Position numbers and translations under genes: made by a program. Below are positions 18,593-59,542 of a stretch of 64,000 bases of DNA, in pieces. The notes under the pieces were generated by a model that was given only the letters and a program-made list of their open reading frames with translations, ran no database searches and was not told where the DNA came from. This DNA is from Actinomycetota bacterium (GTDB lineage Bacteria; Actinomycetota; Aquicultoria; SURF-47), in NCBI GenBank assembly GCA_003599235.1, contig QZJE01000013.1, positions 540 to 64,539 on the forward strand, in the 5' to 3' direction. The stretch's first letter is position 1. Each line of letters starts with the position of its first letter.

Positions 18593-18746
18593 TATTGCCC
18601 ACCATCTAATGAACTTACAATTAAGTTATTTATTTTCCCATTTCGAGTAAACATAACATAACCTGGCGAGGCAATTATTTACCGCTAAATTGCAGTATAG
18701 AATATTAATTGTACCAAAAAAGTAAAAATATGGCAACAAAGCAGTA

Positions 18747-24509: not shown

Positions 24510-25579
24510 ACGTATCTTTCCATCAAAGATGCTTCTCTGAAACGCCTAAGCGAATCATGTATTTCTTTGGCCCTGGATTTAGCAACCCCGGGCACTTCTT
24601 CTAAGTCCGTTGCCTTAGCTAATAAAACAGCTTGCAGGGAGCCGAATTTATTAACTATTTTATCAATAACAACTAAAGGCAAACGGGGCACTTTCTTCAA
24701 AACCCGGTATCCGCGGGGATGAATGTTTGTATCTAAAATGCTGATGTCGCCATCATAGCCCAGAGCCTTGGCAATATTTAGCAGATCAAGCATTTCCTCG
24801 GAAGTAAGCCTTTTTAATTGAAGTTTAATTTCTTCGATATCATGTTTAGGCTTAGCATAGTCCTTAATAATAGCTAAACTATGCTCTGGAATATTTGCCA
24901 GTAGCTCCTCAGACTGAACCTTGATTAATTTTCCTTCACTTCCTAATTCATAGACATAACGGTTAATCTGGTCTGCCACCCGCTCTACCATAAGCGAGCG
25001 CTGTAAAACGATAACAACATCTAATAAAGTTACTAAGTCCTCATATTCGAGAGCACCTAAATTAGCATCAACCTGTTCTAGGCGCGTTTTGTATTTTTCA
25101 AACGCTTGTAGGGCTTGATTGGCTTTTGCCAGAATACTTCTGGTATCTCTTAAAATATACTTAATGTTGTCCACATATAGCGTCACAGATTGCCGCTTTT
25201 GAGAAACAGAAATTACCAAAGCTTTGGTTTGTTTGGCTACCCTCTCTGCTGTTCTGTGCCTCATTCCGCTCTCACTTGTATATATTGAGGAATCAGGAAC
25301 CAGATGAACATTGGAACGCAGTATTTGGTTAAGCTCGCTGTCCATGATGATTGCGCCATCCATTTTCGTAAGTTCATATAAGCGTTGGGGGGTAAATTGA
25401 CAATACAGCTCAAAGCCTCCGTTACTCATTTTAAGCACGTTTTCGGTATCGCCAATGACAATTAAACCACCTGTTTTGGCACTAATAATATATTCGATTG
25501 CCTCGCGCAAATCAGTCCCCGGTGCGATTTTTTTAAGCGCATCAGCTAACATTTGCTGTTTTTGAGTTCTTGTTGTCAC
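24506..25579 (-). CDS. disA: DNA integrity scanning protein DisA (diadenylate cyclase)
   Basis: 357 aa. DGAIIMD and SGMRHRTAER motifs, C-terminal HhH region. GTG start with AGGAG upstream. Confidence 0.85.
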   Translation of the reverse strand: MTTRTQKQQMLADALKKIAPGTDLREAIEYIISAKTGGLIVIGDTENVLKMSNGGFELYCQFTPQRLYELTKMDGAIIMDSELNQILRSNVHLVPDSSIYTSESGMRHRTAERVAKQTKALVISVSQKRQSVTLYVDNIKYILRDTRSILAKANQALQAFEKYKTRLEQVDANLGALEYEDLVTLLDVVIVLQRSLMVERVADQINRYVYELGSEGKLIKVQSEELLANIPEHSLAIIKDYAKPKHDIEEIKLQLKRLTSEEMLDLLNIAKALGYDGDISILDTNIHPRGYRVLKKVPRLPLVVIDKIVNKFGSLQAVLLAKATDLEEVPGVAKSRAKEIHDSLRRFREASLMERYV

Positions 25580-25598
25580 CTTACTCCTAAAATCTAAA

Positions 25599-25620
25599 CC
25601 TTCAGCTCTTCAGTCTTCAG
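25599..25620. repeat. Short tandem repeat CTTCAG x3 (periods 8 and 7)
   Basis: CCTTCAG CTCTTCAG TCTTCAG, 20-40 nt upstream of the disA start. Confidence 0.5.
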
Positions 25621-25629
25621 TCTCTATCC

Positions 25630-26970
25630 TTACGTCAGGTACTCCATTGCTTGTTCTAACTTACTAACCCTGCATAACTTGATTTTCTCTGAGGTTTTTA
25701 CCTTCAGTTCTGGCATAATAATATTTTTAAAACCTAACTTGGAGGCTTCAATTACCCTTTGCTCAGTTGATGATACCTGGCGCAATTCCCCTGAGAGACC
25801 GATTTCTCCAAATGCTATTGTATCGGCAGAAAGCTTCTTATTCTTTAATGAAGAAGCAACAGCTAAGGCAATGCCGATATCAGCCCCAGCTTCACCAACC
25901 TTTAATCCGCCTGCTACATTAGCATAAACATCTTTGTTAGCCAGAGATAGCCCAACCCGTTTTTCTAGTACTGCAATTATAATAGCCAAGCGGTTATAAT
26001 CCAAGCCAGACACCTGTCTTCTGGGGTTAGAAAAATATGATGGAGTCACCAGAGCTTGCACTTCTACCAAGAGTGGCCTAGTTCCCTCGATGGTGGCTAC
26101 TACCACGGAACCGGGCTCACTTTGGCGCTGTGACAAAAATAACTGAGAAGGATTAGCTACCTCTACAAGCCCTGAATCCCGCATTTCAAAAACGCCCACT
26201 TCATTGGTTGAGCCAAAACGGTTTTTGTGCGCCCTGATTATCCGATAACTATGGCAGCTATCCCCTTCAAAATATAAAACGGTGTCGACTATATGCTCTA
26301 GCAGCCTGGGGCCGGCAATAGCACCCTCCTTTGTCACATGCCCTACTATAAAAACCGGTTTATTTAAATCCTTGGCGATTTTTAGCAGACGGGCTGTACA
26401 TTCCCTTATCTGGCTTACACTGCCGGGAGCAGAACTGACTTCGGGCAAAGACATCGTCTGAATCGAATCGATTATTATTATCTGAGGATTAACCGCTTTA
26501 ACCTGCTTGTCTATATATTCTAAGTTAGTTTCAGAAAGTACTAAGGTATTGTCGGATAGTGAGCCTACTCTTTGGGCTCGCATTTTAACTTGGTTGACTG
26601 ATTCCTCTCCGGATACTAAAAGAACCTTTTGGCCTTGATTAGAGACCTGTGATGCTAATTGCAAAAGAAGAGTGGATTTGCCGATTCCTGGTTGGCCGCC
26701 TAATAGTACAAGACTACCTGGGACAATGCCTCCGCCTAGTACCCGGTCGAGTTCGCTGATACCGGTTTTAGTCCGCTTGAAATTAACACTGTTTACTTCG
26801 GTAATTTTTTCAGGCTTAGAATAGTCTTTTTTATCATCGCTTGCACCTTTATAGAAGGTAAGTTCTTCAGCGAAGGTATTGTATTGCTCACAATCTGGAC
26901 AACGCCCCAACCACTGAGGCGAGATATAGCCGCATTGCCCGCATACAAAACCAGTAGCTACTTTACTCAT
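25630..26970 (-). CDS. radA: DNA repair protein RadA/Sms
   Basis: 446 aa. N-terminal zinc ribbon (CGQCGY...CPDC), Walker A GQPGIGKST, Lon-like C-terminus. Confidence 0.9.
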   Translation of the reverse strand: MSKVATGFVCGQCGYISPQWLGRCPDCEQYNTFAEELTFYKGASDDKKDYSKPEKITEVNSVNFKRTKTGISELDRVLGGGIVPGSLVLLGGQPGIGKSTLLLQLASQVSNQGQKVLLVSGEESVNQVKMRAQRVGSLSDNTLVLSETNLEYIDKQVKAVNPQIIIIDSIQTMSLPEVSSAPGSVSQIRECTARLLKIAKDLNKPVFIVGHVTKEGAIAGPRLLEHIVDTVLYFEGDSCHSYRIIRAHKNRFGSTNEVGVFEMRDSGLVEVANPSQLFLSQRQSEPGSVVVATIEGTRPLLVEVQALVTPSYFSNPRRQVSGLDYNRLAIIIAVLEKRVGLSLANKDVYANVAGGLKVGEAGADIGIALAVASSLKNKKLSADTIAFGEIGLSGELRQVSSTEQRVIEASKLGFKNIIMPELKVKTSEKIKLCRVSKLEQAMEYLT

Positions 26971-26998
26971 AAGTTAATAATAGCATAATGAGCAGGGG

Positions 26999-27023
26999 GT
27001 AGGTGGTAGGAAGTAGGGAGTAG
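26999..27023. repeat. Heptanucleotide tandem repeat GTAGGNN x4
   Basis: GTAG at 26999, 27006, 27013 and 27020, exactly 7 nt apart, ending at the clpC stop codon. GTAG is also the head tetranucleotide of the REP elements in this window. Confidence 0.7.
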
Positions 27024-29516
27024 TTACGACTTAGACTTACTTTTGGCTTTTTCTTTAGGGGCTTCAGTCTTTTTTTCGATAAAAACGATAGCCTTGTCTT
27101 TTACTTCACAGATTATCGTCTGGCCTGGCTTGTATTTGCCCTTTAAAAGCTCTTCAGATAAGGGATCTTCTACATAGCGCTGAATAGCCCGTCTCAATGG
27201 CCTAGCCCCGTAAGCTGGAGTATAGCCTTCTTTGGCTAAAAAGTTTTTAGCTTTAGGGCTTAACTCGACCTCAACTCCGCGCTCTTGTAATTGTCCCTGC
27301 ACCCTAGAAAACATCAATTCTACTATCCTTTTGATATTATCCTCGCTTAATTCTGAAAAGACGATAACGTCATCGATGCGGTTTAAAAACTCAGGGCGAA
27401 ATGTCTTCTTTAATTCTGCCGTAACTTTTTCCTTCATATCTTTATAAGAAACCGCCTTCGACTGTTTGCCAAAACCAAGTGATTGTCCTTTTTGAATATC
27501 CCTGGCCCCGACATTAGATGTCATGATGATGATGACATTTTTAAAATTAACCGTTCTACCCTGGGCATCTGTTAAGTGTCCATCTTCTAGAATCTGCAAA
27601 AGAATATTAAAAACATCCGGGTGGGCTTTTTCTATTTCATCGAATAAAATGACAGCGTATGGCCTTCTTCTAACTTGCTCGGTAAGCTGGCCGCCTTCTT
27701 CGTGGCCAACATAACCCGGAGGAGAGCCAATTAACCGGGAGACAGTATGCTTTTCCATATACTCACTCATATCAATTTGAATAAGCGAGCTTTCATCTCC
27801 AAACATATATTCTGCCAAGGCTTTGGCAAGCTCTGTTTTGCCAACCCCAGAGGGTCCTAAGAAAATAAAACTGCCAGATGGGCGCTTGGGATCATGCAAC
27901 CCTGCCCTTGATCGCCTAATGGCCCTAGAGACAGCAACAACAGCTTCATTCTGATCGATAATACGTTCATGTAAGCCGTCTTCCATTTTCAGCAACTTGC
28001 TAGTTTCTTCCTCAGTTAACTTAAACACCGGAATACCAGTCCAGGAGGAGACGATTTGAGCAATTTCTTCTTCAGTAACCTTGGTATCTTCTGCGTTTTT
28101 AGGAATCTTCCATTCTTTTTCCTTTTCCTTTTTATCTACCGTTAGTCTTTTTTCTTTATCCCTTAAAGCGGCTGCTTTTTCGAACTCTTGAGCCTCGATG
28201 GCTGCTTCTTTTTCGGTTCTTACATGTTTAATATTTTTTTCTAAAGCCTTAAAATCAGGTGGAGCCGTCATTAACTTAATACGCAACCTGGAAGCTGCTT
28301 CATCTACTAAATCAATGGCTTTATCAGGCAAAAAGCGGTCTGAGATATAGCGATCCGACATATTTGCCGCTGCAATTAAAGCCTCGTCAGTAATAGCTAT
28401 GCCGTGATGAGCCTCATAGCGATCACGCAAGCCCATTAATATATCTACCGTCTCAGCCACTGAAGGCTGGCCAACTTGAACCGGCTGAAAACGCCGCTCC
28501 AAAGCAGCATCTTTTTCGACATGTTTGCGGTATTCGTCTAAGGTAGTAGCCCCGATGGTTTGTAATTCTCCACGGGCTAAAGCCGGTTTTAGAATACTGG
28601 CGGCATCTATTGCTCCTTCAGCTGCTCCTGCCCCTACCAGATTATGCATCTCATCAATGAATAAGATGACATCCCCGCGGCTAGTTATCTCTTTGATAAC
28701 TTTTTTAAGCCGCTCCTCGAACTCCCCGCGGTATTTTGAGCCGGCAACTAAAGCTCCAAGGTCAAGAGTAAAAATACTTTTGTTTTTTAAGATTTCCGGC
28801 ACTTCGTTTCTGGCAATAGCTTGAGCTAGTCCTTCGACGATAGCGGTTTTTCCTACTCCTGGCTCACCGATTAATACCGGATTGTTCTTAGAGCGCCTGG
28901 ATAGTATCTGCATTACCCGCTCAATTTCTTTTTCCCTGCCGATTACAGGATCGAGCTTACTCTCGGTTGCCAGGCGGGTTAAGTTTCTTCCGTATTCATC
29001 AAGCATACCGCCTTTAGAAGCAAAAGTTTTTTTAGATGCCGGGCTGGTTGCAGAGCCACTTTCGGCAGCTGAGCCGGTATAGTATCCGCTTAACAGCTCG
29101 ATTACCTGGCTTCTTACTTTTTCTAAATCTGCTCCCAGATTAGTCAGCACCCGGGCAGCGATGCCTTCGCCTTCGCGAATAAGCCCTAATAAGATATGTT
29201 CGGTTCCAATATAGTTGTGCCCAAGCTGCAAAGATTCCCGTAATGACAGCTCGAGGACTTTTTTAGCTCTAGGAGTAAAAGGAATGTGGGCCGAAGGGGT
29301 AGAAGTACCTTTGCCGATGATATCTTCGACCTGGGTACGAACATCTTCTAAATTAATGCCTATATTTTTTATGGCCCGAGCGGCGATGCCTTCTTCTTCG
29401 CGAATAAGCCCCAGTAAAAGATGCTCGGTGCCGATATAGTTCTGGTTAAGCATCCTGGCTTCTTCTTGAGCATATACAACCACTCTTCTGGCTTTTTCGG
29501 TAAACCGCTCAAACAT
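27024..29516 (-). CDS. clpC: ATP-dependent Clp protease ATP-binding subunit ClpC
   Basis: 830 aa. Duplicated Clp_N repeats, two AAA+ modules ([16 protein letters not shown]), UVR-like linker. Confidence 0.9.
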
Positions 29517-29526
29517 TTAAACCCCC

Positions 29527-29556
29527 GTTGTTCGAACTTTGAACTTCGTTGTTCGT
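29527..29556. promoter_or_regulatory. Direct repeat CGTTGTTCG (n12) CGTTGTTCG with internal GTTCGAAC palindrome, 11-40 nt upstream of clpC
   Basis: Two identical 9-mers 21 bp apart in the 49-bp mcsB-clpC spacer. Confidence 0.35.
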
Positions 29557-29565
29557 TATCTAATT

Positions 29566-30555
29566 TTACAGCTTTAACTTCATCCTTACCAATTCTGCCC
29601 GGTTAACTTCTTCTTGACTTTCGTTTAAGGCTTTTCTGGCTCTTGTCTGCAAATGCCCAGACCTTATTGTTGTCGACAAATTATCGATTTTCTTTAAGGT
29701 TTTCCTTTGACCATACAATCCGAGATCTATTCCCATACGCAAGATAGATAGATAATCTATAGCCTCATCATATGAAAGTAGTTTGGCATAACGCAGCACA
29801 GCTATTGCCCGCTCTACCTTATCAGTAAGCCACAGTTTATCTTTTGATATCATCTTTTCCCGATTTTGTATCTCTTTAGCCTCCAGGTAATTTATCTCAT
29901 TTTTGATATTGTTAATTATCTGCTGCTCAGAAGAACCAGTGCTGACGTTAGTTTCGAAAAAGAAATAATGACCGCAAGCCAAGGTGCCAACGCCAAAAAC
30001 AGGGCGAGTAAATATTCTCTTTTCCACTAAAGCCCTAATTATCTCCGGCATTTGTTTAGACATAGTTAAAGCTGGTAGATGAAGCACTGAAGCTACTTTG
30101 AGTCCTGTTCCGGCTTTAGTGGGACAGGCTGTTAGAAAACCAATTTCTGTATCAAAAGCAAACTCTAACTTTTTACCAAGTTTGTCATCGAGTGTTGATG
30201 TCATTTTCCAAACACTGTCTAAATCCTTGCCTGGCCGGATAACCTGGATAACTAAATGGTCATCTTCATTGATTAAAAAAGATATGTCTTTTGTACAAGC
30301 CAGAGCGCTTCCCTCATAGTTGTTTGCATAAAAAGCCTCAGTGATAAGCCCCTTTTCTAAAAACACTCTTTTCTTAAGAGCTGTTAATTTATCCCACTTA
30401 AAAATCTTTAAATCCAACCCCAAATCATTTAAGGCATTATTAATATGTTTAAAGATAACCAGACTTTCCTTTTTATCTAACGAATTAGAAAAAGGATAAT
30501 TGGAAAGATTGCGATGCAGGCGGACACGGCTTTTTAAAACAATAGAAGGTTTCAA
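29566..30555 (-). CDS. mcsB: Protein arginine kinase McsB (ATP:guanido phosphotransferase family)
   Basis: 329 aa. Phosphagen-kinase-like CPTKAGTGLK motif. Positioned between mcsA and clpC. Confidence 0.75.
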   Translation of the reverse strand: MKPSIVLKSRVRLHRNLSNYPFSNSLDKKESLVIFKHINNALNDLGLDLKIFKWDKLTALKKRVFLEKGLITEAFYANNYEGSALACTKDISFLINEDDHLVIQVIRPGKDLDSVWKMTSTLDDKLGKKLEFAFDTEIGFLTACPTKAGTGLKVASVLHLPALTMSKQMPEIIRALVEKRIFTRPVFGVGTLACGHYFFFETNVSTGSSEQQIINNIKNEINYLEAKEIQNREKMISKDKLWLTDKVERAIAVLRYAKLLSYDEAIDYLSILRMGIDLGLYGQRKTLKKIDNLSTTIRSGHLQTRARKALNESQEEVNRAELVRMKLKL

Positions 30556-30563
30556 GGGTAATT

Positions 30564-31082
30564 TTAGGCTTTAGTTAGCTTTTCCTTTACAGTGTTAATT
30601 TTGTCTCTGATAAGAGCTGCTGCTTCGTAATTTTCTTGGGAAATAAGCGAGAAAAGCTCATTTTTAAGAGCTTTTAACTCAGTATTTAAGACATACGTTA
30701 CCGGCGCCCAGACAGGAATCTTGCCCTTATATTCCAGACTACCGTGCATTTCTTCCAGTAAAGGGCGAAGTTGCTGACCAAAAAACTGATAACAGTTTGG
30801 ACATCCCAGTAAGCCTGTTTGCATAAAATCAGCAAAAGAAAGCTGGCATTTAGGACACATTTTAAAATTGCTTAAGCGCTCGGGGTAGAACTCCTTATCG
30901 TTTAAGCAATTGAAATAGCTGTCTAAAGGCAGATTCTGGCTATTAATGGAGATTTTAAGGGAGAACGCTTTAAGACAATCTTCACACAAAGAGAACTTAG
31001 TTACCTCACTACCCTCGATTTTAGTAACCCAAGCGCTTGCTACCTTTTTATGACATTGCTCACACATTACCTGTTTATTCAT
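30564..31082 (-). CDS. mcsA: McsA-like protein (zinc-finger N-terminus plus UvrB/UvrC motif)
   Basis: 172 aa. Four CxxC pairs and C-terminal LKALKNELFSLISQENYEAAALIRDKI UVR motif. Confidence 0.7.
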   Translation of the reverse strand: MNKQVMCEQCHKKVASAWVTKIEGSEVTKFSLCEDCLKAFSLKISINSQNLPLDSYFNCLNDKEFYPERLSNFKMCPKCQLSFADFMQTGLLGCPNCYQFFGQQLRPLLEEMHGSLEYKGKIPVWAPVTYVLNTELKALKNELFSLISQENYEAAALIRDKINTVKEKLTKA

Positions 31083-32621: not shown

Positions 32622-35600
32622 CTATTTCACTATCAGCCAATTACTAGCCACTCTAGCCTGAGTATTACCAGCCCTGTCTGTAGCTAACACGTAATATCTG
32701 TACTTGCCTCTTTTAAGTCTTATCCTTATTCTCTTGACTTTCAGCTTATTGATTGCCGTTAAACCCAGTCTAATTGTTTTATAAGTTTTTAAGTAGACTC
32801 TCTTTTTGCCCCTTATTTTCTTAACTGCCTTTTTCTTTATTACTAAAGATACTTTAGCTTTACTCGATAGCGAGTCAGCTACTTTCCAATAGAGTTTAGC
32901 TATTTTTCCTCTTCTAACAACAGATTTTTTAGGAGCATAGGTCTTTGGTTTAGTGTTATCTACCGTAACCATCTGAGTTATTTGGTTTTCGTTTCCTAAG
33001 ATGTCTCTTACAACATATATTAGCTGATGAGGACCATCATTAATGCCTCTAGTGTCCCAGGTAACCGATTTTGCCCCGCTACCTACAGCTGAAGTTGCCG
33101 GATCATCAATGTAGACCGTAAAGGAGCCTATACCACTAGCATCAACAAATGACGGGGACAATACTACTTTGCCTTTTACTAACTGACCTTCTGATAAGGT
33201 ACTCATAGCTAGAGTTGGAGGAGTAGTATCATAGTTATAAACAAATGTTTGCCAAGGACTTACGTTTCCTACATTATCTGTCGCCCTTACTTTAAAGTAG
33301 AAAGTGCCGTCTGAAGGTACTGATACTTCAGGATAAGTGTTAGACTCTGCGCTATCGGTAGGAACATCTCCATTGATATTATTGCCGAAGTAAATATCAT
33401 AGCGGCTAAAACCGCTGCCTTTGTTGCCGTCTTTAGAAGCTTCCCAATAAAAGCTTGGAGCTTGATTATTTGTCCAGCTCCCACTAGCTATTCCGTGAGT
33501 CTCGATAATTGTGCCTGGAGTACTTGGAGCTGACGGATCACATTTATAGGTAAAAACCGTTTCAGCAGCAGTTTCATTGCCAGCCTTGTCTTTTACCTTA
33601 ACTCTTAGATAATATGTTCCCTCAGCTGTTATCTTGCCCGGCTCTAATAGATTAGAAGTTAAATAACCGGTGGTTGCTGTTTGAGTAGCTGAAGGTGTCC
33701 CATTTGGGTTAGTGCCGAAATAATAAGTATATCCTTCAATTCCGCTAGAGGTATCTTGCCAGTTCAGTTCAAACGAAGGGTTGCTTTCAGCAGTAAAAAC
33801 ATCACTTTCTACATTATTGTTTTCTATTACAGCAACATCTTGTTTTTCCGGTGCAGTTATGTCAGCACGATAGATAAATTCCCTCCAACCACTGGTCTTG
33901 CCAGCTAAGTCTTTAGATCTAACCTTTAAGTGATAGATGCCATCTTCGCTGATTGATGGAGGAGTAAAACTACGGTTGTTTATAGCCGTCGACTCAAAAG
34001 GAGGAGTGGGAATCTCATCGGTATCCCAAGATATTTCATACTCAGCTAAGCCGGATGTTCCACCAGCTGGCTCATCCCAGATAAAGCTGGGGTTGGTTCT
34101 CTTTGTCCAAGGATCATTGTTAGCTATTCCATGGATTTCAGTAATTGCTCCTGGCTCAGAAGGAAGAACTGAAGAAAACCTATAGATAAAAATCTCTGCC
34201 GGAGAGCTTACATTGCCGGCATTATCAATAGCTACTACTTTTAGAAAATAAGTGTTATCAGCCGTTATTATAGGCGGCTGAAAAGTGTTGCCGCTGATTG
34301 GAGTGCTTGGAACCTGAGAAGGATCTGTGCCCCAGTAAACTCTATAACCAGCAACAGAACTTGTTTCATCAATCCAGTTAAACCTAAAAGAAGGATTGAT
34401 AAGTGAGGTATAGCTGCCGCTTTCTGTGCCATGAGTTTCTTCAATAGCAGCCATCCCTTCCATAGGTTTAGGTGTTTCAACATCTGCATTATAACGATAT
34501 GTTTTTGGATCTGATATATTCCCGGCTGTATCTTTTACCCATACCTTAAGATAATATGAACCATCTTCATCTATGGTGGGGTTAAAAGTTTGCTCGATTT
34601 GATCAGGCTGATTAGGTATTAAAGCAGTTGGATTTGTTCCCCAATATATTCTATAAGTATCTAGTCCGCTAATATTGCAATCAGAGCTTAAGTAGAAATT
34701 AGGGCTTATGTTATTTGACCATGGACCATTATCGGGTACATCTGCCGTTATATTATTCATGATTGGCTTGGAGGCGTCATACTTAAAGACAAATACAGTT
34801 TCGGTAGCTGCTTGGTTACCGGCATTGTCTTTAGCTCTAACTCGCAGGTAGTAAGTACCTTCAGTTGTCAGGGCAGCCGGGTCAATGGTGGTTCCGGTTA
34901 CATAAGTTGCAGGAGTGCCAGATGAGCTAGGGCCGAAATAATAGGTGTAGCCGGCAAGGCCGCTCTCATCATCGTCACCGTTTAACTCAAAGCATGGATC
35001 AGCGTTGTTAGTCCACTCATTATCTACTACTGCGTGGGTCTCCATTGCAGTTCCGTTTGTTGGAGAGCTAACATCGGCTCTATATGTAAAAATATCTGAC
35101 CAAGCACTTACTCTTCCAACATTATCTATCGCCCTTATCCTTAAATAATAAACACCGCTTTCAGATAAGGTAGCCGGTGTAAACGTAGAGTTATTTACAT
35201 TATCATACGGAGGAGGACACAAAGAATCAGTTCCAAAATAAACGTCGTAGCTCTCGATTCCGCTACCACTATCAGTTGAGTTAGCCCATGAAAAACTAGG
35301 ATTGTTGATATTGGTTACAGGGTCATTGCTATTATAGCCATGAATCTCTGTAATAGAGATAGGCTTTGTGGGAGCATTTCCATCGTATTTATATATATAC
35401 TGTTCAACGGCACTTTCTTTGCCGGTATTATCTCTTGCTTTTACTTTTAAGTAATAAGTGCCCTCAGCTGTAAGCGGGCTAGGTGTAAAATTATTACTGG
35501 TTGTTTCAGCAGCTGGAGTCCCGGCACTGTCAGGACCAAAGTAATAGATATATTTCTGAATACCGCTTTCATTATCTTCCCAATTAAATCTAAAACTAGG

Positions 35601-36674
35601 ATTATTTTTACTTGTCCAGGTTTCGCTCTCAATACCGCTTGTCTCTTCAATGGCATCTTTTCCCGTTATGACATCAGGTGGCAGAGTATCTACAATATAG
35701 GTTCGATTAACTGTAGCCACATTATTAGCCCTGTCATAAGCAGTATATGTAACCGTATGAGCTCCGTTGCTGGCAGCATCAGTAGGCACAACCCAGGAAT
35801 GGTTAAAAGGATACCCTGTAATCTCGATATTATCATCATCAATAACAAAAGCAGTTCTATCATAATCCAAGCCTGAATCCTCTTCATGAGGCTGGATTGT
35901 AAAATTTACCGAGCCGCTAACCAAGCTGTTATCTGCGGGGCCGGTAAAGTCAACTGTGGGAGCAGTTGTATCGTTTGCAAAATTATCACTGCCTTTAAAA
36001 ATAGCATTGCCAAATGTGCTGGGACTATATAATGAAGAGCCACTTGGCCATACCCCAGCATAACTAGGAGTTTGTACAGTTTCACCTACAGACAAGCCAA
36101 ATGTTTTACTTGTAGTAGATGTAAGGCCTAATTTAGAAAAATATATCTTAAACTCGGCTTCCCAATAAGTTGAACCAACAATTCTCTTGGCGCTCCATTT
36201 GTTGGTTGTCTCACTCGAGTAAGTAACACTGGTATTGTAGCCATACCCATTTCCTTTAGCTTCAATATTTTCTCCATCAGATTTTCTGATAGTAAGCATG
36301 TAATCGCTACTGTCAGCTGAATTGCCATTATGGTTTAGATCTAAGCCAATCCTGGCAAAGTTGTTAGAAGAATTGCCGCCGTCAGGGATATAGAATCCAA
36401 CGTACAAATAACTTCCGTTTGTTTTAAAATAAGCACATCCCTGTTGGCCGGTAACAGTAGTAAAATATGCTCTTTTTTCCCCGCTAGCAGTATCTGTCCA
36501 TTCGTTTACACTAGGGTCTATATTTCCATCATAGGTAACAGTTGTTCCACTACTAATATTTGCTCTACTTAAAGCATCGTCGTGAGCAAAAGAAATTGAG
36601 GGAAACATGGCAGCGGGAATTAAATTTAAGACTAAAACCAAAGATATTAACGAAGCTATTGTCTTCCTTATCAT
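32622..36674 (-). CDS. Large secreted surface protein with about nine FN3/Ig-like repeats and a Lys/Arg-rich C-terminal module
   Basis: 1350 aa. Signal peptide. Repeated motif YYFG.....TP......T...P..L..EGTYYL.V.A.DNAGN. C-terminal ~110 aa alignable with the C-terminus of the 8719..11436 protein. Confidence 0.8.
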   Translation of the reverse strand: MIRKTIASLISLVLVLNLIPAAMFPSISFAHDDALSRANISSGTTVTYDGNIDPSVNEWTDTASGEKRAYFTTVTGQQGCAYFKTNGSYLYVGFYIPDGGNSSNNFARIGLDLNHNGNSADSSDYMLTIRKSDGENIEAKGNGYGYNTSVTYSSETTNKWSAKRIVGSTYWEAEFKIYFSKLGLTSTTSKTFGLSVGETVQTPSYAGVWPSGSSLYSPSTFGNAIFKGSDNFANDTTAPTVDFTGPADNSLVSGSVNFTIQPHEEDSGLDYDRTAFVIDDDNIEITGYPFNHSWVVPTDAASNGAHTVTYTAYDRANNVATVNRTYIVDTLPPDVITGKDAIEETSGIESETWTSKNNPSFRFNWEDNESGIQKYIYYFGPDSAGTPAAETTSNNFTPSPLTAEGTYYLKVKARDNTGKESAVEQYIYKYDGNAPTKPISITEIHGYNSNDPVTNINNPSFSWANSTDSGSGIESYDVYFGTDSLCPPPYDNVNNSTFTPATLSESGVYYLRIRAIDNVGRVSAWSDIFTYRADVSSPTNGTAMETHAVVDNEWTNNADPCFELNGDDDESGLAGYTYYFGPSSSGTPATYVTGTTIDPAALTTEGTYYLRVRAKDNAGNQAATETVFVFKYDASKPIMNNITADVPDNGPWSNNISPNFYLSSDCNISGLDTYRIYWGTNPTALIPNQPDQIEQTFNPTIDEDGSYYLKVWVKDTAGNISDPKTYRYNADVETPKPMEGMAAIEETHGTESGSYTSLINPSFRFNWIDETSSVAGYRVYWGTDPSQVPSTPISGNTFQPPIITADNTYFLKVVAIDNAGNVSSPAEIFIYRFSSVLPSEPGAITEIHGIANNDPWTKRTNPSFIWDEPAGGTSGLAEYEISWDTDEIPTPPFESTAINNRSFTPPSISEDGIYHLKVRSKDLAGKTSGWREFIYRADITAPEKQDVAVIENNNVESDVFTAESNPSFELNWQDTSSGIEGYTYYFGTNPNGTPSATQTATTGYLTSNLLEPGKITAEGTYYLRVKVKDKAGNETAAETVFTYKCDPSAPSTPGTIIETHGIASGSWTNNQAPSFYWEASKDGNKGSGFSRYDIYFGNNINGDVPTDSAESNTYPEVSVPSDGTFYFKVRATDNVGNVSPWQTFVYNYDTTPPTLAMSTLSEGQLVKGKVVLSPSFVDASGIGSFTVYIDDPATSAVGSGAKSVTWDTRGINDGPHQLIYVVRDILGNENQITQMVTVDNTKPKTYAPKKSVVRRGKIAKLYWKVADSLSSKAKVSLVIKKKAVKKIRGKKRVYLKTYKTIRLGLTAINKLKVKRIRIRLKRGKYRYYVLATDRAGNTQARVASNWLIVK

Positions 36675-40569: not shown

Positions 40570-41709
40570 ATGCAAAAAAGATATCAGTTAGCAAATATCG
40601 CTTTTATTTTAATATTACTCGTTCTTTTTGGTTGTAGCTCTAAGATAGCCACAAAAACAAAGCCTATCGAAGTAAAAAAAGCCAAAAAAACAATGCCAAA
40701 AAAACAAGTTACATTTGATAAGCCCTACTATAAGGGAATATCTTATCCGGCCTATAATGCAAAGGTTTATCTTAAAGCCGAATCAGACAGAGAAATTAGG
40801 CGCATCGCCTCAACCGGAGCCAATACTATTGCCTTGGTGCCATTATGGTATACCACCAACTTAACACAGAGCGATATCCATCCCGAGCCAGAAGATACCG
40901 CCACTGACGCCTCATTAATTCACGCTATAAAACTTTCTCATAGCTTGGGAATAAAAGTTAATCTCAAACCTTTTGTCGACCCAAAAACAGGTGGCACCTG
41001 GCGGGCAAAATACCATCCTAAAAACTGGCAAGAGTGGTTTAACAACTATAATGTTTTTATAAAACATTATGCCACCATAGCTCAGCAAAATGGTGTTGAG
41101 CTTTTAACTATTGGCACCGAATATACCAGCAGTGACGGCGTTAGAGAAGCTAATTGGCGAGAAGTTATCAAAAATGTCCGTAATATCTATAAAGGAAAAA
41201 TAACCTATGCCGCTGATTACCAAGACATTAAAAGCGACGGCCCACCATACAGAGGCGGCTACCGCAATATAAGGTTTTGGGATGCACTAGATTATATTGG
41301 CATTGATGGCTACTTTCCCTTGGCCAAAAAGCCCGGTGAAAGTAAACCCCAATTAGTAGCTCGTTGGCAAAAGTGGATTTTTGAACTCGAAAATTGGGGC
41401 TGGGTTAAGGAACAAAAGAAACAAATTATTTTTACCGAAATAGGATATGGAAGCTACCCTGGAACTACTGTTGACACCGGCCACTGGGATAGAAAAACAA
41501 CTACCGTCAGTTTATCTGAACAAGCCAATGCCTACGAAGCTGTCTTTGTTGCTTTTGAGAAAAAACCCTGGTTTGCCGGCATGTATTGGTGGGCCTGGGA
41601 TAACCCGTCTACTTTTGATTGGAAACCTCATATCAGAAAATTCTTCTTTACGCCCAAAGGTAAACCAGCTGAGCGAGTACTGCATCAGTGGTTTAAGAAA
41701 ACAAACTAA
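40570..41709 (+). CDS. Lipoprotein, putative TIM-barrel glycoside hydrolase
   Basis: 379 aa. Lipobox LFGCSS. Candidate catalytic Glu in TIGTEYTS and IIFTEIGYG. Trp-rich pattern typical of clan GH-A enzymes. Confidence 0.5.
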   Translation: MQKRYQLANIAFILILLVLFGCSSKIATKTKPIEVKKAKKTMPKKQVTFDKPYYKGISYPAYNAKVYLKAESDREIRRIASTGANTIALVPLWYTTNLTQSDIHPEPEDTATDASLIHAIKLSHSLGIKVNLKPFVDPKTGGTWRAKYHPKNWQEWFNNYNVFIKHYATIAQQNGVELLTIGTEYTSSDGVREANWREVIKNVRNIYKGKITYAADYQDIKSDGPPYRGGYRNIRFWDALDYIGIDGYFPLAKKPGESKPQLVARWQKWIFELENWGWVKEQKKQIIFTEIGYGSYPGTTVDTGHWDRKTTTVSLSEQANAYEAVFVAFEKKPWFAGMYWWAWDNPSTFDWKPHIRKFFFTPKGKPAERVLHQWFKKTN

Positions 41710-41772: not shown

Positions 41773-43731
41773 ATGGAGTGGTACCCGGCTTCAACATTAA
41801 TAACAGTTATAATAAGTGCGGTTATTGCTTGCTTTACCATGTTTAGAAGCCGAAATCATAGGGCTACAAAAGTATTTTCTTTTCTATTATTAGGAACAAC
41901 CCTCTGGTGTTTAGGCGCTTTCTTGGTTAATATCTCAACACAGGCCAAACAAGCACTTTACTGGACAAGATTTATGCATCTGGCAATCGTCTTTGTGCCT
42001 TCCTTTTTCATCCATTTTGTTATAGCCATGCTTTCAGAAGAAAATAATTGGATTCTAAAGACTTGTTACGGTATCTCTATATTTTTTGCCTTTACCATCT
42101 TAAGCCCTTTGTTGATAACCAAAGTTACCCCTGCTGATTATATTGGCTGGTCATTTTCAACCGGAATACTATATTACCCTTTAGCAGCCTTTTATGTTTT
42201 AGGGTCAACTTACGGTTTTATCAAGCTATACAAATCTTATAACCAGACTTCTACCGGTTACAGAAAAAAACAGCTTCAGTACTTTATCTTTGCTAATCTT
42301 ATCGCCGTTACAGGAATAATAATCTTTTATTTTCTTTCGATTAGCAATCTACCTTTTAAAGTTCCGCCGATGGATAATTTATTTCTTTTAACTTTTATTT
42401 TAATTGTTACCTACGCCATGATATCTTACCGGTTAATTGATATTAGGCTAGCGATAATAAAATTCTTCTTTTTTAGCTTATTTGGTACTTCAGTACTTAT
42501 TTTATTTATTGGATTATTAACCCCAGTCAGCTATCTTGTGTATCAGAAAATAGAATATCCATTTATAGTTGTAGCAGCAGGCGCCTTTGTTCTAACCGTT
42601 GGCATAAGCAAGCCACTGAGAGAAGGACTAATGGGCTATGTTAACCAAATAGTTTACGGCGAAAATCACAAACATGCCAAAGTAATAAAAGATGCCGCTT
42701 CTGCAGTGGTAACAATGCTAGATATCAGAGAATTACTAGGATATGTTATGGAAACAATCGTAAAAGACATAGGCGTAAAAAAAGTGTCTCTGCTGATAAA
42801 AGAAGGTAGTGTCTATAAAGTTAAAGCATCACAAGGGTCGCAAGCTAGAAATTATCTACTAAAAGAAGACTCACCTCTTATTGTCAAGCTTAGCCAAAAT
42901 AAAGATAAAGCCTACATTAGATACGAATTAGAGCGAGAGAATAATCAAACTAATAAGGGGGTAATCCAGGAATTAGATAAAATTGGAGCCGAGCTTATTA
43001 TCCCTTTGGCTTACAAAGAAGAGTTAATTGGGGTGCTTAACTTAGGACTCAAATCATCTGGAAAAATATATTCCCCAACTGATATCGATACCTTAACAAC
43101 GTTAGGCACTAACTTAGGTATTGCCCTGGTAAATGCCAAGCTTTACGCCGAAGCAATATCAGATGCCTTAACCGGGCTGTATCATCACAAATATTTCAAA
43201 TCCCGGCTTGCTGATGAACTATTGCAAGCCAAAACTCTTAAGTATCCATTCTCCGTGATGATGCTTGACCTTGATCATTTTAAGAAGGTAAATGATACCT
43301 ATGGCCATCCTGTTGGAGACGAAGTATTAAAAGAAGTCGCTGACTTGATGAAAGAAAATACTAGATTATTTGATGTAGTAGCCCGCTATGGTGGCGAAGA
43401 GTTTGCCATCATTCTGCCCGGAGTTGGCAAAAACGGACGTAAAAACCATATTCAAACGGTTACCAAAATTGCCGAACGCCTAAGAAAGAAAATCGAAGAA
43501 CATCAATTTTCTTCTTCGAAAATTAAACTGACCATTAGTATCGGTTTAGCCATATATGATGGCAAGGGTAAAAACGTAACTGACAAAAATCTTCTAAAAA
43601 AAGCAGATGATGAGCTTTATATGGCTAAACGGCAAGGACGAAACAGAGTTTGTATCAGTTCCTTTAGTGATCTTCCTGGCAAGCTTGCAGTCGTGTCTAA
43701 CAACGCTGCTCCAAAAGCAAGCGCCAGTTAG
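41773..43731 (+). CDS. Membrane sensor diguanylate cyclase: N-terminal 7TM region, GAF-like middle, C-terminal GGDEF domain
   Basis: 652 aa. RLIDIRL motif in the TM region (paralogous to the 11668..14097 N-terminus). Active-site RYGGEEF. Confidence 0.85.
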   Translation: MEWYPASTLITVIISAVIACFTMFRSRNHRATKVFSFLLLGTTLWCLGAFLVNISTQAKQALYWTRFMHLAIVFVPSFFIHFVIAMLSEENNWILKTCYGISIFFAFTILSPLLITKVTPADYIGWSFSTGILYYPLAAFYVLGSTYGFIKLYKSYNQTSTGYRKKQLQYFIFANLIAVTGIIIFYFLSISNLPFKVPPMDNLFLLTFILIVTYAMISYRLIDIRLAIIKFFFFSLFGTSVLILFIGLLTPVSYLVYQKIEYPFIVVAAGAFVLTVGISKPLREGLMGYVNQIVYGENHKHAKVIKDAASAVVTMLDIRELLGYVMETIVKDIGVKKVSLLIKEGSVYKVKASQGSQARNYLLKEDSPLIVKLSQNKDKAYIRYELERENNQTNKGVIQELDKIGAELIIPLAYKEELIGVLNLGLKSSGKIYSPTDIDTLTTLGTNLGIALVNAKLYAEAISDALTGLYHHKYFKSRLADELLQAKTLKYPFSVMMLDLDHFKKVNDTYGHPVGDEVLKEVADLMKENTRLFDVVARYGGEEFAIILPGVGKNGRKNHIQTVTKIAERLRKKIEEHQFSSSKIKLTISIGLAIYDGKGKNVTDKNLLKKADDELYMAKRQGRNRVCISSFSDLPGKLAVVSNNAAPKASAS

Positions 43732-57059: not shown

Positions 57060-57641
57060 CTATTGCCTAAATGACCCATTGACCGTTGACCGTCTTTTTC
57101 CTCTATATACCATGCAATTTTGCAGATAAAGAAAAGCACCGATGGTAATAAATACATCCCCGGCACTAATAAGGCTAGGCAGAGGATAGGGTTTGGGAAT
57201 TGGGATTATGTCAGCTAAAAAGGGAAGACGCGTTTTAGCAGTTAGAATAACGTGCTTGTAGTCAGTTAGAAAAGATTTTTTAAAGGCGCTTAGGTCTTCG
57301 CCAATAAAAGCTGCTGATTTAGCAGATACCGGCATGCCCCCGTTTAGGGCAATTACGACAAAATTTAAAGTAGCTCCGATAGCTATCAGCAACAAAAAAT
57401 TATTCTCTTTTCCGTTTATAAAACTAGCAAATATCAACAGAGCGTATGTTGCCAAAAGAAGTGCAAAATTACTAACGGCAGGCATTGGCAAGCTGGCCCC
57501 AAAAAAAACCAATCCAACCTGGATAAATAAAGCGATGATAATAAGATAGTCGAAGCGGATTCTTATGGTATCAAGCCTGGATAGCGAGCCTCCCCTAAGA
57601 TAGCCCACCACAATCGCTAGCACCACCCCTAGCTCAATCAT
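57060..57641 (-). CDS. Hypothetical polytopic membrane protein
   Basis: 193 aa, about five TM segments. The 3' end of the ORF contains a TTGACC heptamer array. Confidence 0.5.
   Translation of the reverse strand: MIELGVVLAIVVGYLRGGSLSRLDTIRIRFDYLIIIALFIQVGLVFFGASLPMPAVSNFALLLATYALLIFASFINGKENNFLLLIAIGATLNFVVIALNGGMPVSAKSAAFIGEDLSAFKKSFLTDYKHVILTAKTRLPFLADIIPIPKPYPLPSLISAGDVFITIGAFLYLQNCMVYRGKRRSTVNGSFRQ
57072..57092. repeat. Heptanucleotide tandem repeat TGACCCA TTGACCG TTGACCG (TTGACC family)
   Basis: Within the last codons of the 57060..57641 ORF, about 190 nt upstream of secA. Confidence 0.6.
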
Positions 57642-57645
57642 AATC

Positions 57646-58887
57646 CTAAACCAGTTTTCCTTGACGCTTAAGTACGTTGGTAAAAGCCCGCATTATCCGG
57701 GGATCATATATCAAGCCCTGGTCTTTCTGCAATGCTGAGACTGCCTGCTTGGTATCTAGACGTTCCTCTAATTCTTCAGCATGAGTCATCTCGTCAAAGC
57801 GGCTGACAATGGAAATAATGCGAGAACCAAAAGGAAGCGGCTTGCTTACCCCCAACCCCACAAAAGGCTCATGGTGATACTTTACCAATTCCGCTGAGTC
57901 TTTAAGGTAATCCACATTGCTAATAATTTCGGCTCCAACTTTAGCATGCAGAGGCAAGCCTTCCTCAGATGGCAAATCCTCGGTGTCAAATAAAGTTTCT
58001 TTAGCGCTGTCATCAAAACCCAGCTGGCCAATATCGTGCAAGGACGCAGCATATCCTAACCTTTCTAAGTCCTTTCCAAACATGCCTAGTTCGCGGCCAA
58101 CATCGATGCTTAAGTTGGTAACCCTTTGAGCATGACCCTTTTTGCTTGGATCCCCCGCCTCGATTACCGAAGATAAAGCTGAGATAGTATCCTTATAAGT
58201 CCGTCTGATATTTAGCAGCAATTTAAAAGAGTGCCCGGCAACGAGCAGGGGAAGAGCAAATAAAAGATAACTCCATACATGCAGCTTGGAATACATTATA
58301 GCCATCAATAAACTGATAATAGCAAAGGTAGAATACATCGGGAAAAGCAGCCTTATAGTTCCGATATAGACCGGCAGAAAAGACACTCCTTTCTCCATCG
58401 AGAAAAAAAACTGGTTGAGCCCAATATCAAGAAGGAAAAAGACAGAAGAGCTGGCAACCGTTAAAGGCAAAATATACCAAAAAGAAATAGGTGCGTTTAC
58501 CTGACCGCCTAAGAAAGTAAATACCAACCAGGCAGCCGACATCGATAAAACAAATCGGCTCACAGTAAGCATGGGTTTAATAAAGTTTAATTTTTTTTCG
58601 AAAAAAAGCCTTTGCGCTAAAGCACCTACAAAAACTCCCAGTACCGCAAAGGAGTATGGCAAGATAAAAATTGAAGCTAATACAACAGCCGGGGCAATGG
58701 TAAGGCGTCCGCCTTGGGGAAAATCAATACTTAAGAAGCCGCATAAGAAGATTGCTACGGCTAGAGCTAGTGATTGAAAAATCAAAGCGTCTGAGCTTAA
58801 GCCCAACAGAGAGAAAACTAAAACAAATAATCCTAAACCAACTACCAGCACCCGGCTGATAGCTAATTTAGATCTGATTGCTAACAA
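57646..58887 (-). CDS. Membrane protein with C-terminal HD-type (degenerate HD-GYP-like) domain
   Basis: 413 aa. About eight TM segments, then GHAQRV...SLHDIGQLG...YHHEPFVGLG. Confidence 0.55.
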   Translation of the reverse strand: MLAIRSKLAISRVLVVGLGLFVLVFSLLGLSSDALIFQSLALAVAIFLCGFLSIDFPQGGRLTIAPAVVLASIFILPYSFAVLGVFVGALAQRLFFEKKLNFIKPMLTVSRFVLSMSAAWLVFTFLGGQVNAPISFWYILPLTVASSSVFFLLDIGLNQFFFSMEKGVSFLPVYIGTIRLLFPMYSTFAIISLLMAIMYSKLHVWSYLLFALPLLVAGHSFKLLLNIRRTYKDTISALSSVIEAGDPSKKGHAQRVTNLSIDVGRELGMFGKDLERLGYAASLHDIGQLGFDDSAKETLFDTEDLPSEEGLPLHAKVGAEIISNVDYLKDSAELVKYHHEPFVGLGVSKPLPFGSRIISIVSRFDEMTHAEELEERLDTKQAVSALQKDQGLIYDPRIMRAFTNVLKRQGKLV

Positions 58888-58888
58888 A

Positions 58889-59542
58889 TTACACCCCTAA
58901 AGAAAACTCAAGCTTTCTATTTAGAGCAGCCAGAACCGCTTTGACCACTGCTTGATTTTCATTATTAAGGACGATACAGCTTCCGCTGAAGTTAAGCTCT
59001 TTTTCTATGGTTAGGAGATTAAGACATACGGTGACTATTTTACGGTCGCCGGTAGATACTAAGCGAACATCCTCCAGGCTAATCCCTCCCGGTAAAGACC
59101 CAAGTTTATCAACAGCGTTGATGGTGGCTTGCCCCACCAAACGCAGCTTTGAACTGCTGGAAGCTACCCCTTGGCATAATCCTTCGTATTCTTTGGTCCC
59201 TGACTCTAATATTACATTGACTGTGGAGTGAATACCGGAGGTCTCAACATTTACAGATTTCAGTTTAGGACGGGGAAGAGGCTCATTTGCCTGCTCATCA
59301 CTGGTAATCTGGGCTATGCTGATTTTTCTGTAATCAACCCCTAGACCGTGTTTTACCATAACAGCCGACTCAATATCTCTGGCTAGGCTTTTAAGATTTT
59401 TTGGCGAGCTTGAGACAACATGAACTTCTGAGATATCATCAGATTCAGTTACAATGCGAGCAGCTTCTACACCATCTATCTGGCAAATCGTCGTTTCTAT
59501 CTCGTTAACCGGATGTCCTTTTACAATAAGTTCCATAACCAC
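58889..59542 (-). CDS. Hypothetical cytoplasmic protein
   Basis: 217 aa, no recognised motifs. Confidence 0.45.
   Translation of the reverse strand: MVMELIVKGHPVNEIETTICQIDGVEAARIVTESDDISEVHVVSSSPKNLKSLARDIESAVMVKHGLGVDYRKISIAQITSDEQANEPLPRPKLKSVNVETSGIHSTVNVILESGTKEYEGLCQGVASSSSKLRLVGQATINAVDKLGSLPGGISLEDVRLVSTGDRKIVTVCLNLLTIEKELNFSGSCIVLNNENQAVVKAVLAALNRKLEFSLGV

Follow-up and report, generated by a model that had tools for sequence, protein, structure and literature searches.

Predicted GGDEF cyclase and HD-GYP phosphodiesterase genes in one actinobacterial genomic window encode distant members of a modular HisKA_7TM-type membrane-sensor family

A 64,000-nt stretch of an Actinomycetota genome (assembly GCA_003599235.1, contig QZJE01000013.1, positions 540 to 64,539; hereafter the window) carries two genes whose products point in opposite directions of cyclic di-GMP (c-di-GMP) metabolism, one a membrane protein that ends in a GGDEF domain and the other a membrane protein that ends in an HD-GYP domain. 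Do the two proteins read the same signal? An earlier note on this DNA had proposed that they do, one input module being coupled to both synthesis and degradation in a push-pull arrangement. Our analysis favors another answer: on balance, the two genes probably code for independent members of a large modular membrane-sensor family, the input of the HD-GYP protein being more likely linked to a fatty-acyl gene cluster and the opposition between the two proteins being only generic, exerted through the c-di-GMP pool that they share. The two corresponding open reading frames (ORFs), as well as that of a third membrane protein with an HD domain, were found exactly where the note had placed them (Table 1).

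The window cyclase is identical to a database protein (P0001) named 'MAG: diguanylate cyclase [Actinobacteria bacterium]', where MAG stands for metagenome-assembled genome. Pfam recognizes in it a HisKA_7TM domain (amino acids (aa) 8-224, profile positions 2-222 of 224, 56.3 bits for a cut-off of 28.6), a GAF_2 domain (aa 317-452) and a GGDEF domain (aa 461-625, E=3.9e-46), and its AlphaFold2 (AF2) model has a mean predicted local distance difference test score (pLDDT) of 89.5. The multi-helix N-terminus, RL(I/M)DIRL motif and GAF-like middle region that had been noticed in both proteins were recovered, as YRLIDIRL at the end of the 7TM domain in the cyclase and as HRLMDIRL in the HD-GYP protein; the helix count has to be corrected, since hydropathy and the AF2 model predict nine transmembrane (TM) helices, that is, a 7TM domain plus a TM8-TM9 hairpin. 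In the cyclase, the outer loop that joins TM4 to TM5 is predicted to contain a beta-hairpin (aa 115-130). The predicted topology of the window sensor proteins places the N-terminus outside, the positively charged loops 26-32 and 156-166 inside, and the GAF domains and outputs in the cytoplasm. When a TM-only model was submitted to Foldseek, the membrane bundle was predicted to adopt a fold resembling that of G-protein-coupled receptors (GPCR); with the full cyclase model, Foldseek returned GGDEF and GAF matches only and no membrane-fold match.

The GGDEF domain had been described as active-looking on account of its RYGGEEF motif, a description borne out by comparison with PleD, WspR and DgcB, relative to which its catalytic residues are complete. 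In the alignment to PleD (1w25), DLDHFKKVNDTYGHPVGDEV and RYGGEEF are both kept, and with them the metal-binding Asp and the guanine-binding Asn and Asp that correspond to PleD N335 and D344. An I-site of the RxxD type, RLFD, which the note had not mentioned, lies five residues upstream of GGEEF. Such an I-site is kept in most GGDEF-output members of the sensor family, and is common, though not obligatory, in GGDEF cyclases at large. Most likely, the gene product is a working diguanylate cyclase whose I-site mediates product inhibition.

The HD-GYP protein contains, besides the sensor and the catalytic domain, a second GAF domain that the earlier note had missed. Its N-terminus goes unrecognized by Pfam, with no HisKA_7TM match at E<=0.01 in the window protein; several of its orthologues carry a precomputed match to this domain (PF16927). 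Ten full-length orthologues (P0157-P0165 and P0167) share its architecture at 36-41% identity and 95-98% coverage, and an eleventh, P0166, is partial. The catalytic domain aligns to V-cGAP3 (5z7c, E=3.9e-42), its best solved relative, and to PmGH (4mcw, E=2.8e-41), and relative to both structures the metal ligands and the loop are complete: GH(626), HD(658-659), H(687), HHE(711-713), DGKGYP(716-721) and D(740). Its catalytic motif residues are invariant across 12 orthologues. These observations agree with the note's assignment of an HD-GYP output to this protein, and c-di-GMP hydrolysis of the HD-GYP type is its most likely activity.

Could one or both proteins instead be non-enzymatic, acting as c-di-GMP-binding or scaffold proteins, or could the HD-GYP domain act on another nucleotide such as 3'3'-cyclic GMP-AMP (cGAMP)? 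We consider this highly improbable. The idea draws on the fact that V-cGAP3 is cGAMP-specific, on the Tyr that the window protein bears, as V-cGAP3 does, where PmGH has its third-metal Glu in the alignment, and on the cyclase I-site, which is of the c-di-GMP-binding type. Both domains nevertheless hold all catalytic and metal-binding residues, and PmGH, a c-di-GMP enzyme, matches almost as well as V-cGAP3 does. Hypr-GGDEFs carry Ser at the guanine-specifying GxxGD position, where Asp is found in both cyclases considered here (GHPVGD in the window cyclase and GHQTGD in P0170, a relative introduced below); this residue gives no indication of cGAMP synthesis. By the criteria that a sequence can satisfy, the two window proteins are members of the GGDEF cyclase and HD-GYP phosphodiesterase families, respectively.

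Is the input module that the two proteins have in common peculiar to them? The sensor is a cassette of about 460 aa, larger than the Pfam domain, in which the 7TM domain is followed by the TM8-TM9 hairpin, a long helix and a GAF domain. An exhaustive HMMER search of representative clusters with cyclase residues 1-460 as the query matched 7,835 clusters at E<=1e-3, 2,887 at 1e-10 and 163 at 1e-30, and the top 150 matches span residues ~1-460 of the cyclase. Outputs of the best 155 family proteins, classified by seed searches and Pfam, are predominantly histidine kinases (~107), GGDEF domains (19, the window cyclase included) and HD-GYP domains (12) each making up about 10%; one protein ends in a class III cyclase and the rest are truncated. 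Among the matches listed are proteins of Chloroflexota, Acidobacteriota, Patescibacteria, Thermodesulfobacteriota and others. PF16927 was matched by each of the 19 further family members scanned, one of which also gave a weak match to PF07695 (6.5e-6). The RL(I/M)DIRL motif is part of a family-wide YAIxxYRLMDI signature at the cytoplasmic end of TM7, of which Y214 is conserved in 94%, L221 in 88%, D223 in 83% and I224 in 84% of 152 members. Both window sensors can therefore be assigned to the HisKA_7TM sensor family. HisKA_7TM figures among the histidine-kinase sensor domains described in previous census papers, with no ligand assigned (PMC5847659, PMC6944256), and our search of the literature on PF16927 found no ligand and no functional study.

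Other genomes provide further arrangements of the cassette. In a Dehalococcoidaceae MAG (CAYWUK010000051.1, locus L006, 2621..6278), a gene broken by a masked run of N encodes a single-chain 7TM-GAF-GGDEF-HD-GYP protein, in which a sensor of this family is fused to both opposing c-di-GMP activities, and is followed by a REC-HD-GYP gene. Genomes with orthologues of the HD-GYP protein often have a second HisKA_7TM gene, coding for a 7TM-GAF-HD-GYP protein or a kinase, within 10 kb (L084 6045..13940, L090 8001..15911, L087 15277..17220 and L089 10886..12910), which indicates that the presence of two cassette proteins in 64 kb is not unusual in these lineages.

Alignment of the two window N-termini revealed homology over the whole TM and GAF cassette. 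HD-GYP residues 11-435 match the cyclase sensor in BLASTP with E=9e-22 (22% identity over 446 columns), and residues 8-439, compared with a family hidden Markov model (HMM) that was built from 150 other sensors with both window proteins excluded, match its positions 7-460 with 237 bits; the best of 200 shuffles scored 4.1 bits. Such a match, together with a score so far above that of shuffles, indicates that the homology is real and not due to chance.

The relationship is nonetheless a remote one. Identity between the two sensors is 17% in a multiple alignment of 152 sensors and 17-24% across comparisons, which makes them the most distant pair in the sampled family: ranked by identity, the HD-GYP sensor comes last (151/151) from the cyclase and the cyclase 139th of 151 from the HD-GYP sensor. 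The score of the HD-GYP sensor against the cyclase sensor is 74.6 bits, compared with 125 bits for the 150th database match. By region, identity is 24% in the TM part, not significant in TM8-9, and 32% in the GAF domain over 68 residues only. In a neighbor-joining tree of 33 sensors (Poisson distance, 300 bootstraps) the two were sisters in 0/300 replicates, and the cyclase grouped with P0007 and P0008, both with GGDEF outputs, in 285/300. Average-linkage clustering at 25% identity places the cyclase in a cluster of 13 proteins, all of which have GGDEF outputs; its orthogroup comprises P0007-P0010 and others. That each orthogroup keeps its own output suggests that each combination of sensor and output is an old and stable lineage. 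Finally, of 43 family-conserved positions the cyclase keeps 35, equal to the family median, and the HD-GYP sensor 28, just below the 5th percentile of 29; the 15 that it has lost include P76, H81, F82, Y170, P199 and G420.

These results bear directly on the proposal that a shared type of sensor supplies the window cyclase and the HD-GYP enzyme with one and the same signal, making them a dedicated push-pull pair that sets c-di-GMP. Neither of the two findings that the note had named as refuting it, unrelated N-terminal sensors or a catalytic domain short of essential residues, was obtained. The proposal can point to sensors that are homologous end to end and have family core residues in common, to two outputs that both look active, and to the single-chain GGDEF-HD-GYP protein of L006, which illustrates that one family sensor can drive both activities. 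Against this stand the divergence of the two sensors, the positions lost from the HD-GYP sensor, the extra GAF domain of the HD-GYP protein and a shared motif that is family-wide. The two genes are moreover on opposite strands, 28 kb from each other, and their surroundings differ both in content and in what is conserved of them: in the loci examined, no HD-GYP neighbor of this type was found beside orthologues of the cyclase, and no orthologue of the cyclase near orthologues of the HD-GYP protein. Because the sensors are only distant relatives, a same-signal input for the window pair is not supported by our alignments, and a dedicated pair appears to us improbable.

A better candidate for an opposing partner of the HD-GYP enzyme is encoded elsewhere. 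RJQ31733.1 (P0170; 630 aa) is a 7TM-GAF-GGDEF protein, with RSFD I-site and GGDEF motif intact, whose sensor has 36% identity to that of the HD-GYP protein (476 columns, E=2e-63; 33-36% across comparisons), with 31% in the TM part, 45% in TM8-9 and 40% in the GAF domain. P0170 is therefore a closer opposite-output partner of the HD-GYP protein than the window cyclase is. The clade of HD-GYP orthologues includes P0170 in 215/300 bootstraps and excludes it in 1/300, and this nesting points to a replacement of the output within that sensor branch. P0170 very probably comes from the same MAG as the window, as suggested by the accession series and label (RJQ31733, RJQ32081 and RJQ32106) and by a tetranucleotide correlation with the window of 0.962 for its contig, compared with 0.949 between the window halves and 0.873 for the next-best locus.

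A rival reading is that the HD-GYP enzyme's opposing partner is RJQ31733.1, whose sensor would have been born in the HD-GYP clade by output replacement, and that the two may share a signal. The sensor identity, the nesting, the intact motifs and the genomic indications are all in keeping with such a partnership. However, an identity of 33-36% falls far short of what an inference of one common ligand would need, P0170 has no second GAF domain, its gene lies between ABC-transporter and ZIP genes, away from the ligase and radical S-adenosylmethionine (SAM) cassette described below, and its membership of the same MAG is itself deduced from accessions and composition. We accordingly regard this partnership as unlikely, if worth keeping in mind.

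What, in that case, might the HD-GYP protein sense? Its gene is the last of four in the order ligase, synthase, radical SAM enzyme, HD-GYP, separated by a gap of 17 nt, a 4-nt overlap and a gap of 81 nt, and no terminator-like site was found between them. The first gene encodes a fatty acid-coenzyme A (CoA) ligase resembling FadD, the second an alpha-oxoamine synthase whose matches in the PDB are KBL, BioF and serine palmitoyltransferase (SPT) at E~1e-73, with CqsA (2wk8 and 3hqt) also among the matches, and the third a B12-binding radical SAM enzyme whose best NCBIfam matches, HpnJ and lipid B12-binding radical SAM enzymes, are all below cut-off. A promoter-like site precedes the ligase gene (18736..18708), in promoter and terminator scans that performed no better than on shuffles. 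Just upstream of the ligase gene (18776..19212, minus strand), a putative HicA/HicB-like toxin-antitoxin pair (73 and 72 aa) would mark the upstream boundary of the cluster.

Parts of this arrangement recur at other loci. Ligase orthologues (47-70% identity) are found upstream of HD-GYP orthologues in all seven loci for which context was available, and orthologues of the radical SAM enzyme (45-57% identity) are found beside them in five of the seven, one being missing at the P0158 locus. As third enzyme, three loci (P0157, P0158 and P0161) have an alpha-oxoamine synthase, while an aldehyde dehydrogenase/LuxC-like protein, an acetyltransferase and a dehydrogenase-like protein take this place at one locus each. 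Gene order is shuffled among the orthologous loci, and their outer flanks are of at least five kinds. The control set consisted of 80 metagenome loci with GAF-HD-GYP relatives that lack the orthologous sensor; the radical SAM enzyme or the synthase was present in 0/80 of them, and one had a weak AMP-binding match. Furthermore, in a WOR-1 MAG (METM01000007.1, locus L027, 7527..12424), an orthologue of the radical SAM enzyme (41.5% identity) and a gene resembling beta-ketoacyl-ACP synthase III (KASIII) directly precede a 7TM-GAF-PAS-HisKA-HATPase gene. The proximity of this enzyme to a kinase of the same family suggests that the cassette is linked to the sensor rather than to the output. A gene resembling monogalactosyldiacylglycerol (MGDG) synthase lies upstream at this locus, in divergent orientation.

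The position of the HD-GYP gene at the end of a conserved ligase, synthase and radical SAM cluster makes it more likely that the input of this protein is linked to a signal or membrane molecule of fatty-acyl origin than to the cue read by the cyclase. A more specific version, that the HD-GYP sensor is the receptor for a lipid-like product of the three upstream enzymes, so that synthase and receptor would form a self-contained unit, similar in logic to CqsA/CqsS, by which a membrane-lipid or autoinducer signal acts directly on c-di-GMP breakdown, with RJQ31733.1 as the opposing arm, is in our judgment doubtful, and rather more a lead than an expectation; if true, it would provide the first ligand class for the HisKA_7TM family. 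We found no literature describing the combination of an alpha-oxoamine synthase with a B12-binding radical SAM enzyme. The window synthase does not reach the model for alpha-hydroxyketone autoinducer synthases, scoring 162.6 bits for NF005526, whose cut-off is 428, and is closer to the BioF/Kbl family TIGR01825, with 372 bits.

Several points weigh against reading the two genes as independent family members with an acyl-linked HD-GYP input. Both sensors retain a common core consisting of W45, R66, Y99, G131, Q167, Y214, L221, D223, I224, P411, K427 and D437, and should the family as a whole sense a single general property of the membrane, the two proteins would do so too, however divergent they are. 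The case for co-transcription in the window consists of gene spacing and the lack of terminator-like sites. Conservation of the cluster was observed in the window, at seven orthologous loci and at a single WOR-1 locus; these all come from uncultured organisms, and some are fairly related, with ligase identities of up to 70%. Lastly, the third enzyme varies from locus to locus, and a single cluster product is thus not implied.

We therefore propose the following working model for two independent sensors. The cassette, a GPCR-like seven-helix bundle with TM8-TM9 hairpin, long helix and GAF domain, is fused to varied outputs, and both the cyclase and the HD-GYP enzyme would act as dimers, judging from what is known of GGDEF and HD-GYP proteins. 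By analogy with cyclases in which a GAF or PHY domain and a helix precede GGDEF, a change of the bundle in the membrane would be relayed by the GAF domain and then by the signaling helix. In the cyclase dimer the relayed change would set how the two GGDEF domains meet, and c-di-GMP would inhibit the enzyme by feedback at RLFD; in the HD-GYP protein it would set the activity of the HD-GYP domain. The HD-GYP sensor belongs to another branch of the family, one that split off anciently, and carries an extra GAF domain; its input would most plausibly be related to a fatty-acyl product of the cluster or to the membrane state that this product creates.

The third protein had been noted as carrying a degenerate HD-GYP-like domain, which is correct as regards the missing GYP loop and incorrect as regards the HD core. 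In an alignment to PmGH it shows HHEPFVGLGVSKPLPF in place of HHExxDGxGYP, DGxGYP being replaced by VGLGVSKPLPF, and it retains all HD metal ligands: H252, H284/D285, H314, H338/H339/E340 and D365. By these features it classifies as an HD_5-family protein and not as a canonical HD-GYP protein. It was also tried as a relative of the two window sensors and rejected, its membrane domain scoring -13.8 bits in the family HMM, no better than shuffles. The gene is the middle one of three packed genes on the minus strand (57060..59542) with gaps of 1-4 nt, the others coding for a 217-aa protein with no family match and for a DUF5317 membrane protein; we found no functional study of DUF5317 in published work.

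Upstream of the cyclase gene, at a distance of 63 nt, lies a gene for a lipoprotein of glycoside hydrolase family 113 (GH113). No terminator-like site was found in this gap, in a scan that performed no better than on shuffles, and co-transcription of the two genes is possible. A conserved linkage between them was considered and discarded: no GH113 homologue occurs in 80 related genome loci or beside the cyclase orthologues P0008 and P0009.

The rest of the window is mostly devoted to housekeeping functions (clpC-mcsB-mcsA, radA-disA, carD, ispDF, gltX, lysS, greA, secA, prfB, hpf, ftsEX, rnr and tkt), and an Rfam scan of the window gave no match, a c-di-GMP riboswitch included. The gene disA, for a c-di-AMP synthase, is paired with radA beside the clpC-mcsB-mcsA genes of the protein arginine kinase system (24506..31082, minus strand), and a second cyclic-dinucleotide system is thus encoded in the window. 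Extending past the left end of the window is a giant ORF, at least 2,918 aa in length, that carries RHS repeats and DUF6531; it is preceded by a gene for a secreted protein of 905 aa in which CarboxypepD_reg and PKD repeats occur (both in the 2..11436 region, minus strand). A 1,350-aa protein with Big_13/Ig repeats is encoded at 32622..36674. Two multiheme c-type cytochromes with paired CXXCH motifs and MtrC-like matches are encoded at 60193..61218 and 62931..63998 (minus strand) in this genome labeled as Actinomycetota, and an IS200-like transposase fragment (61435..61992, plus strand) is found between their genes.

Table 1. Positions of the genes, domains and motifs discussed in the text, numbered from the first nucleotide of the window unless another locus is given.
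Feature	Position	Strand	Basis or identifier
HisKA_7TM-GAF-GGDEF diguanylate cyclase gene (predicted), 652 aa	41773..43731	+	ORF, Pfam, identical protein P0001; NCBI RJQ32106.1
Cyclase 7TM sensor domain, TM1-TM7, aa 8-224	41794..42444	+	
Cyclase signature YRLIDIRL, aa 219-226	42427..42450	+	
Cyclase TM8-TM9 hairpin and long cytoplasmic helix joining membrane domain to GAF, aa 225-312	42445..42708	+	AF2 helices 224-257, 262-278, 280-312
Cyclase GAF domain, aa 317-452, and C-terminal signaling helix running into GGDEF, aa 435-462	42721..43158	+	Pfam GAF_2, AF2 helix 435-462
Cyclase GGDEF catalytic domain, aa 461-625	43153..43647	+	Pfam, alignment to PleD 1w25 and DgcB 6hbz
Cyclase metal/substrate motif DLDHFKKVND	43267..43296	+	
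Cyclase I-site RLFD, aa 531-534	43363..43374	+	
Cyclase active site GGEEF, aa 540-544	43390..43404	+	
GH113-family glycoside hydrolase lipoprotein (LFGC signal)	40570..41709	+	Pfam PF22612 4.1e-56
7TM-GAF-GAF-HD-GYP phosphodiesterase gene (predicted), 809 aa	11668..14097	-	ORF, Pfam, database protein P0156; NCBI RJQ32081.1
HD-GYP sensor cassette: 7TM aa 8-222, TM8-9 aa 223-300, cryptic GAF1 aa 301-440	12778..14076	-	BLASTP, family HMM
HD-GYP sensor signature HRLMDIRL, aa 213-220	13438..13461	-	
Second GAF of HD-GYP protein, aa 458-593, no counterpart in cyclase	12319..12726	-	Pfam GAF_2 1.1e-20, GAF 8.7e-19
HD-GYP catalytic domain, aa 613-774	11776..12261	-	Pfam HD_5 1.7e-43
HD-GYP motif GH	12208..12225	-	
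HD-GYP motif HDIGK, aa 658-662	12112..12126	-	
HD-GYP motif QHPKIG	12025..12042	-	
HD-GYP motif HHERYDGKGYP, aa 711-721	11935..11967	-	
HD-GYP motif DTFDAM	11863..11880	-	
FadD-like fatty acid-CoA (AMP-forming) ligase, first cluster gene	16838..18592	-	Pfam AMP-binding; NCBIfam FadD11-like, below cut-off
BioF/Kbl/serine-palmitoyltransferase-type alpha-oxoamine synthase	15633..16820	-	Pfam Aminotran_1_2; NCBIfam TIGR01825 372 bits, below every equivalog cut-off
B12-binding radical SAM enzyme	14179..15636	-	Pfam; CxxxCxxC motif GCPNSCDFC
Membrane protein with HD-GYP-family HD domain, no GYP loop, 413 aa	57646..58887	-	Pfam HD_5 3.5e-17, 63.1 bits
DUF5317 membrane protein gene adjoining third HD gene	57060..57641	-	
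7TM-GAF-GGDEF protein RJQ31733.1 (P0170), 630 aa, 'MAG: Actinobacteria bacterium'	L082 10001..11893		JGI 3300007352, contig Ga0104756_1000003

That a single sensor family can be reused in modular fashion on different outputs has long been known, and the window pair appears to be a case of ordinary modular signaling, a known sensor family placed on two well-known c-di-GMP outputs in an uncultured Actinomycetota genome, with no new regulatory principle. The lead that emerges is the consistent link of one HD-GYP subfamily, and of a kinase of another phylum, to a cassette of FadD-like ligase and B12-binding radical SAM enzyme. This linkage points to a testable class of signals, fatty-acyl-derived molecules, and the predicted GPCR-like fold offers a structural frame in which the idea could be tested.

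How do these proteins compare with known systems? Within the HisKA_7TM family, the window outputs are GGDEF and HD-GYP and not kinase. A likeness to 7TMR-DISM proteins lies in the use of a bacterial 7TM input on alternative outputs that include c-di-GMP enzymes (e.g. RgsP, PMC6107284), whereas TM8-9 and the GAF domain are specific to the window cassette. Neither window protein matches PF07695 (7TMR-DISM_7TM) or has a DISMED or other N-terminal ectodomain, TM1 starting at residue 3, which argues that they are not 7TMR-DISM proteins. The cyclase has the same layout of GAF domain, signaling helix and GGDEF as Dcsbis/PA2771 (4zmu) and IsPadC (5llw), with Foldseek E values from 5.7e-15 to 7.5e-14; those proteins, like PleD and WspR, are soluble and respond to light, to phosphorylation or to cytoplasmic cues of unknown nature, whereas the GAF domain of the cyclase would be driven by a nine-TM domain. 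The HD-GYP protein shares with PmGH of Persephonella marina and with V-cGAP3 the succession of GAF and HD-GYP domains, the metal ligands and the GYP loop; it adds to these the nine-TM sensor and a second GAF domain, and its Tyr at the position of the third-metal Glu of PmGH is also found in V-cGAP3.

Two further systems pair the elements seen here in other ways. DosC and DosP of E. coli are a co-transcribed cyclase and phosphodiesterase that both sense O2 through heme. The two window proteins resemble them in that c-di-GMP outputs of opposite sense occur within a single organism and are each joined to a sensor domain, and differ in that their genes lie far apart on opposite strands and their sensors are so divergent; the window pair is not an operonic pair of the DosC/DosP kind. 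In the CqsA/CqsS system, the gene for an autoinducer synthase of the alpha-oxoamine synthase family lies beside that for a polytopic membrane receptor. In the window, too, the gene of an enzyme of this family, which uses acyl-CoA, adjoins that of a polytopic membrane sensor; unlike in CqsA/CqsS, however, the output is HD-GYP and not a kinase, the synthase is replaced in some clusters, and the constant partners are the B12-binding radical SAM enzyme and the FadD-like ligase.

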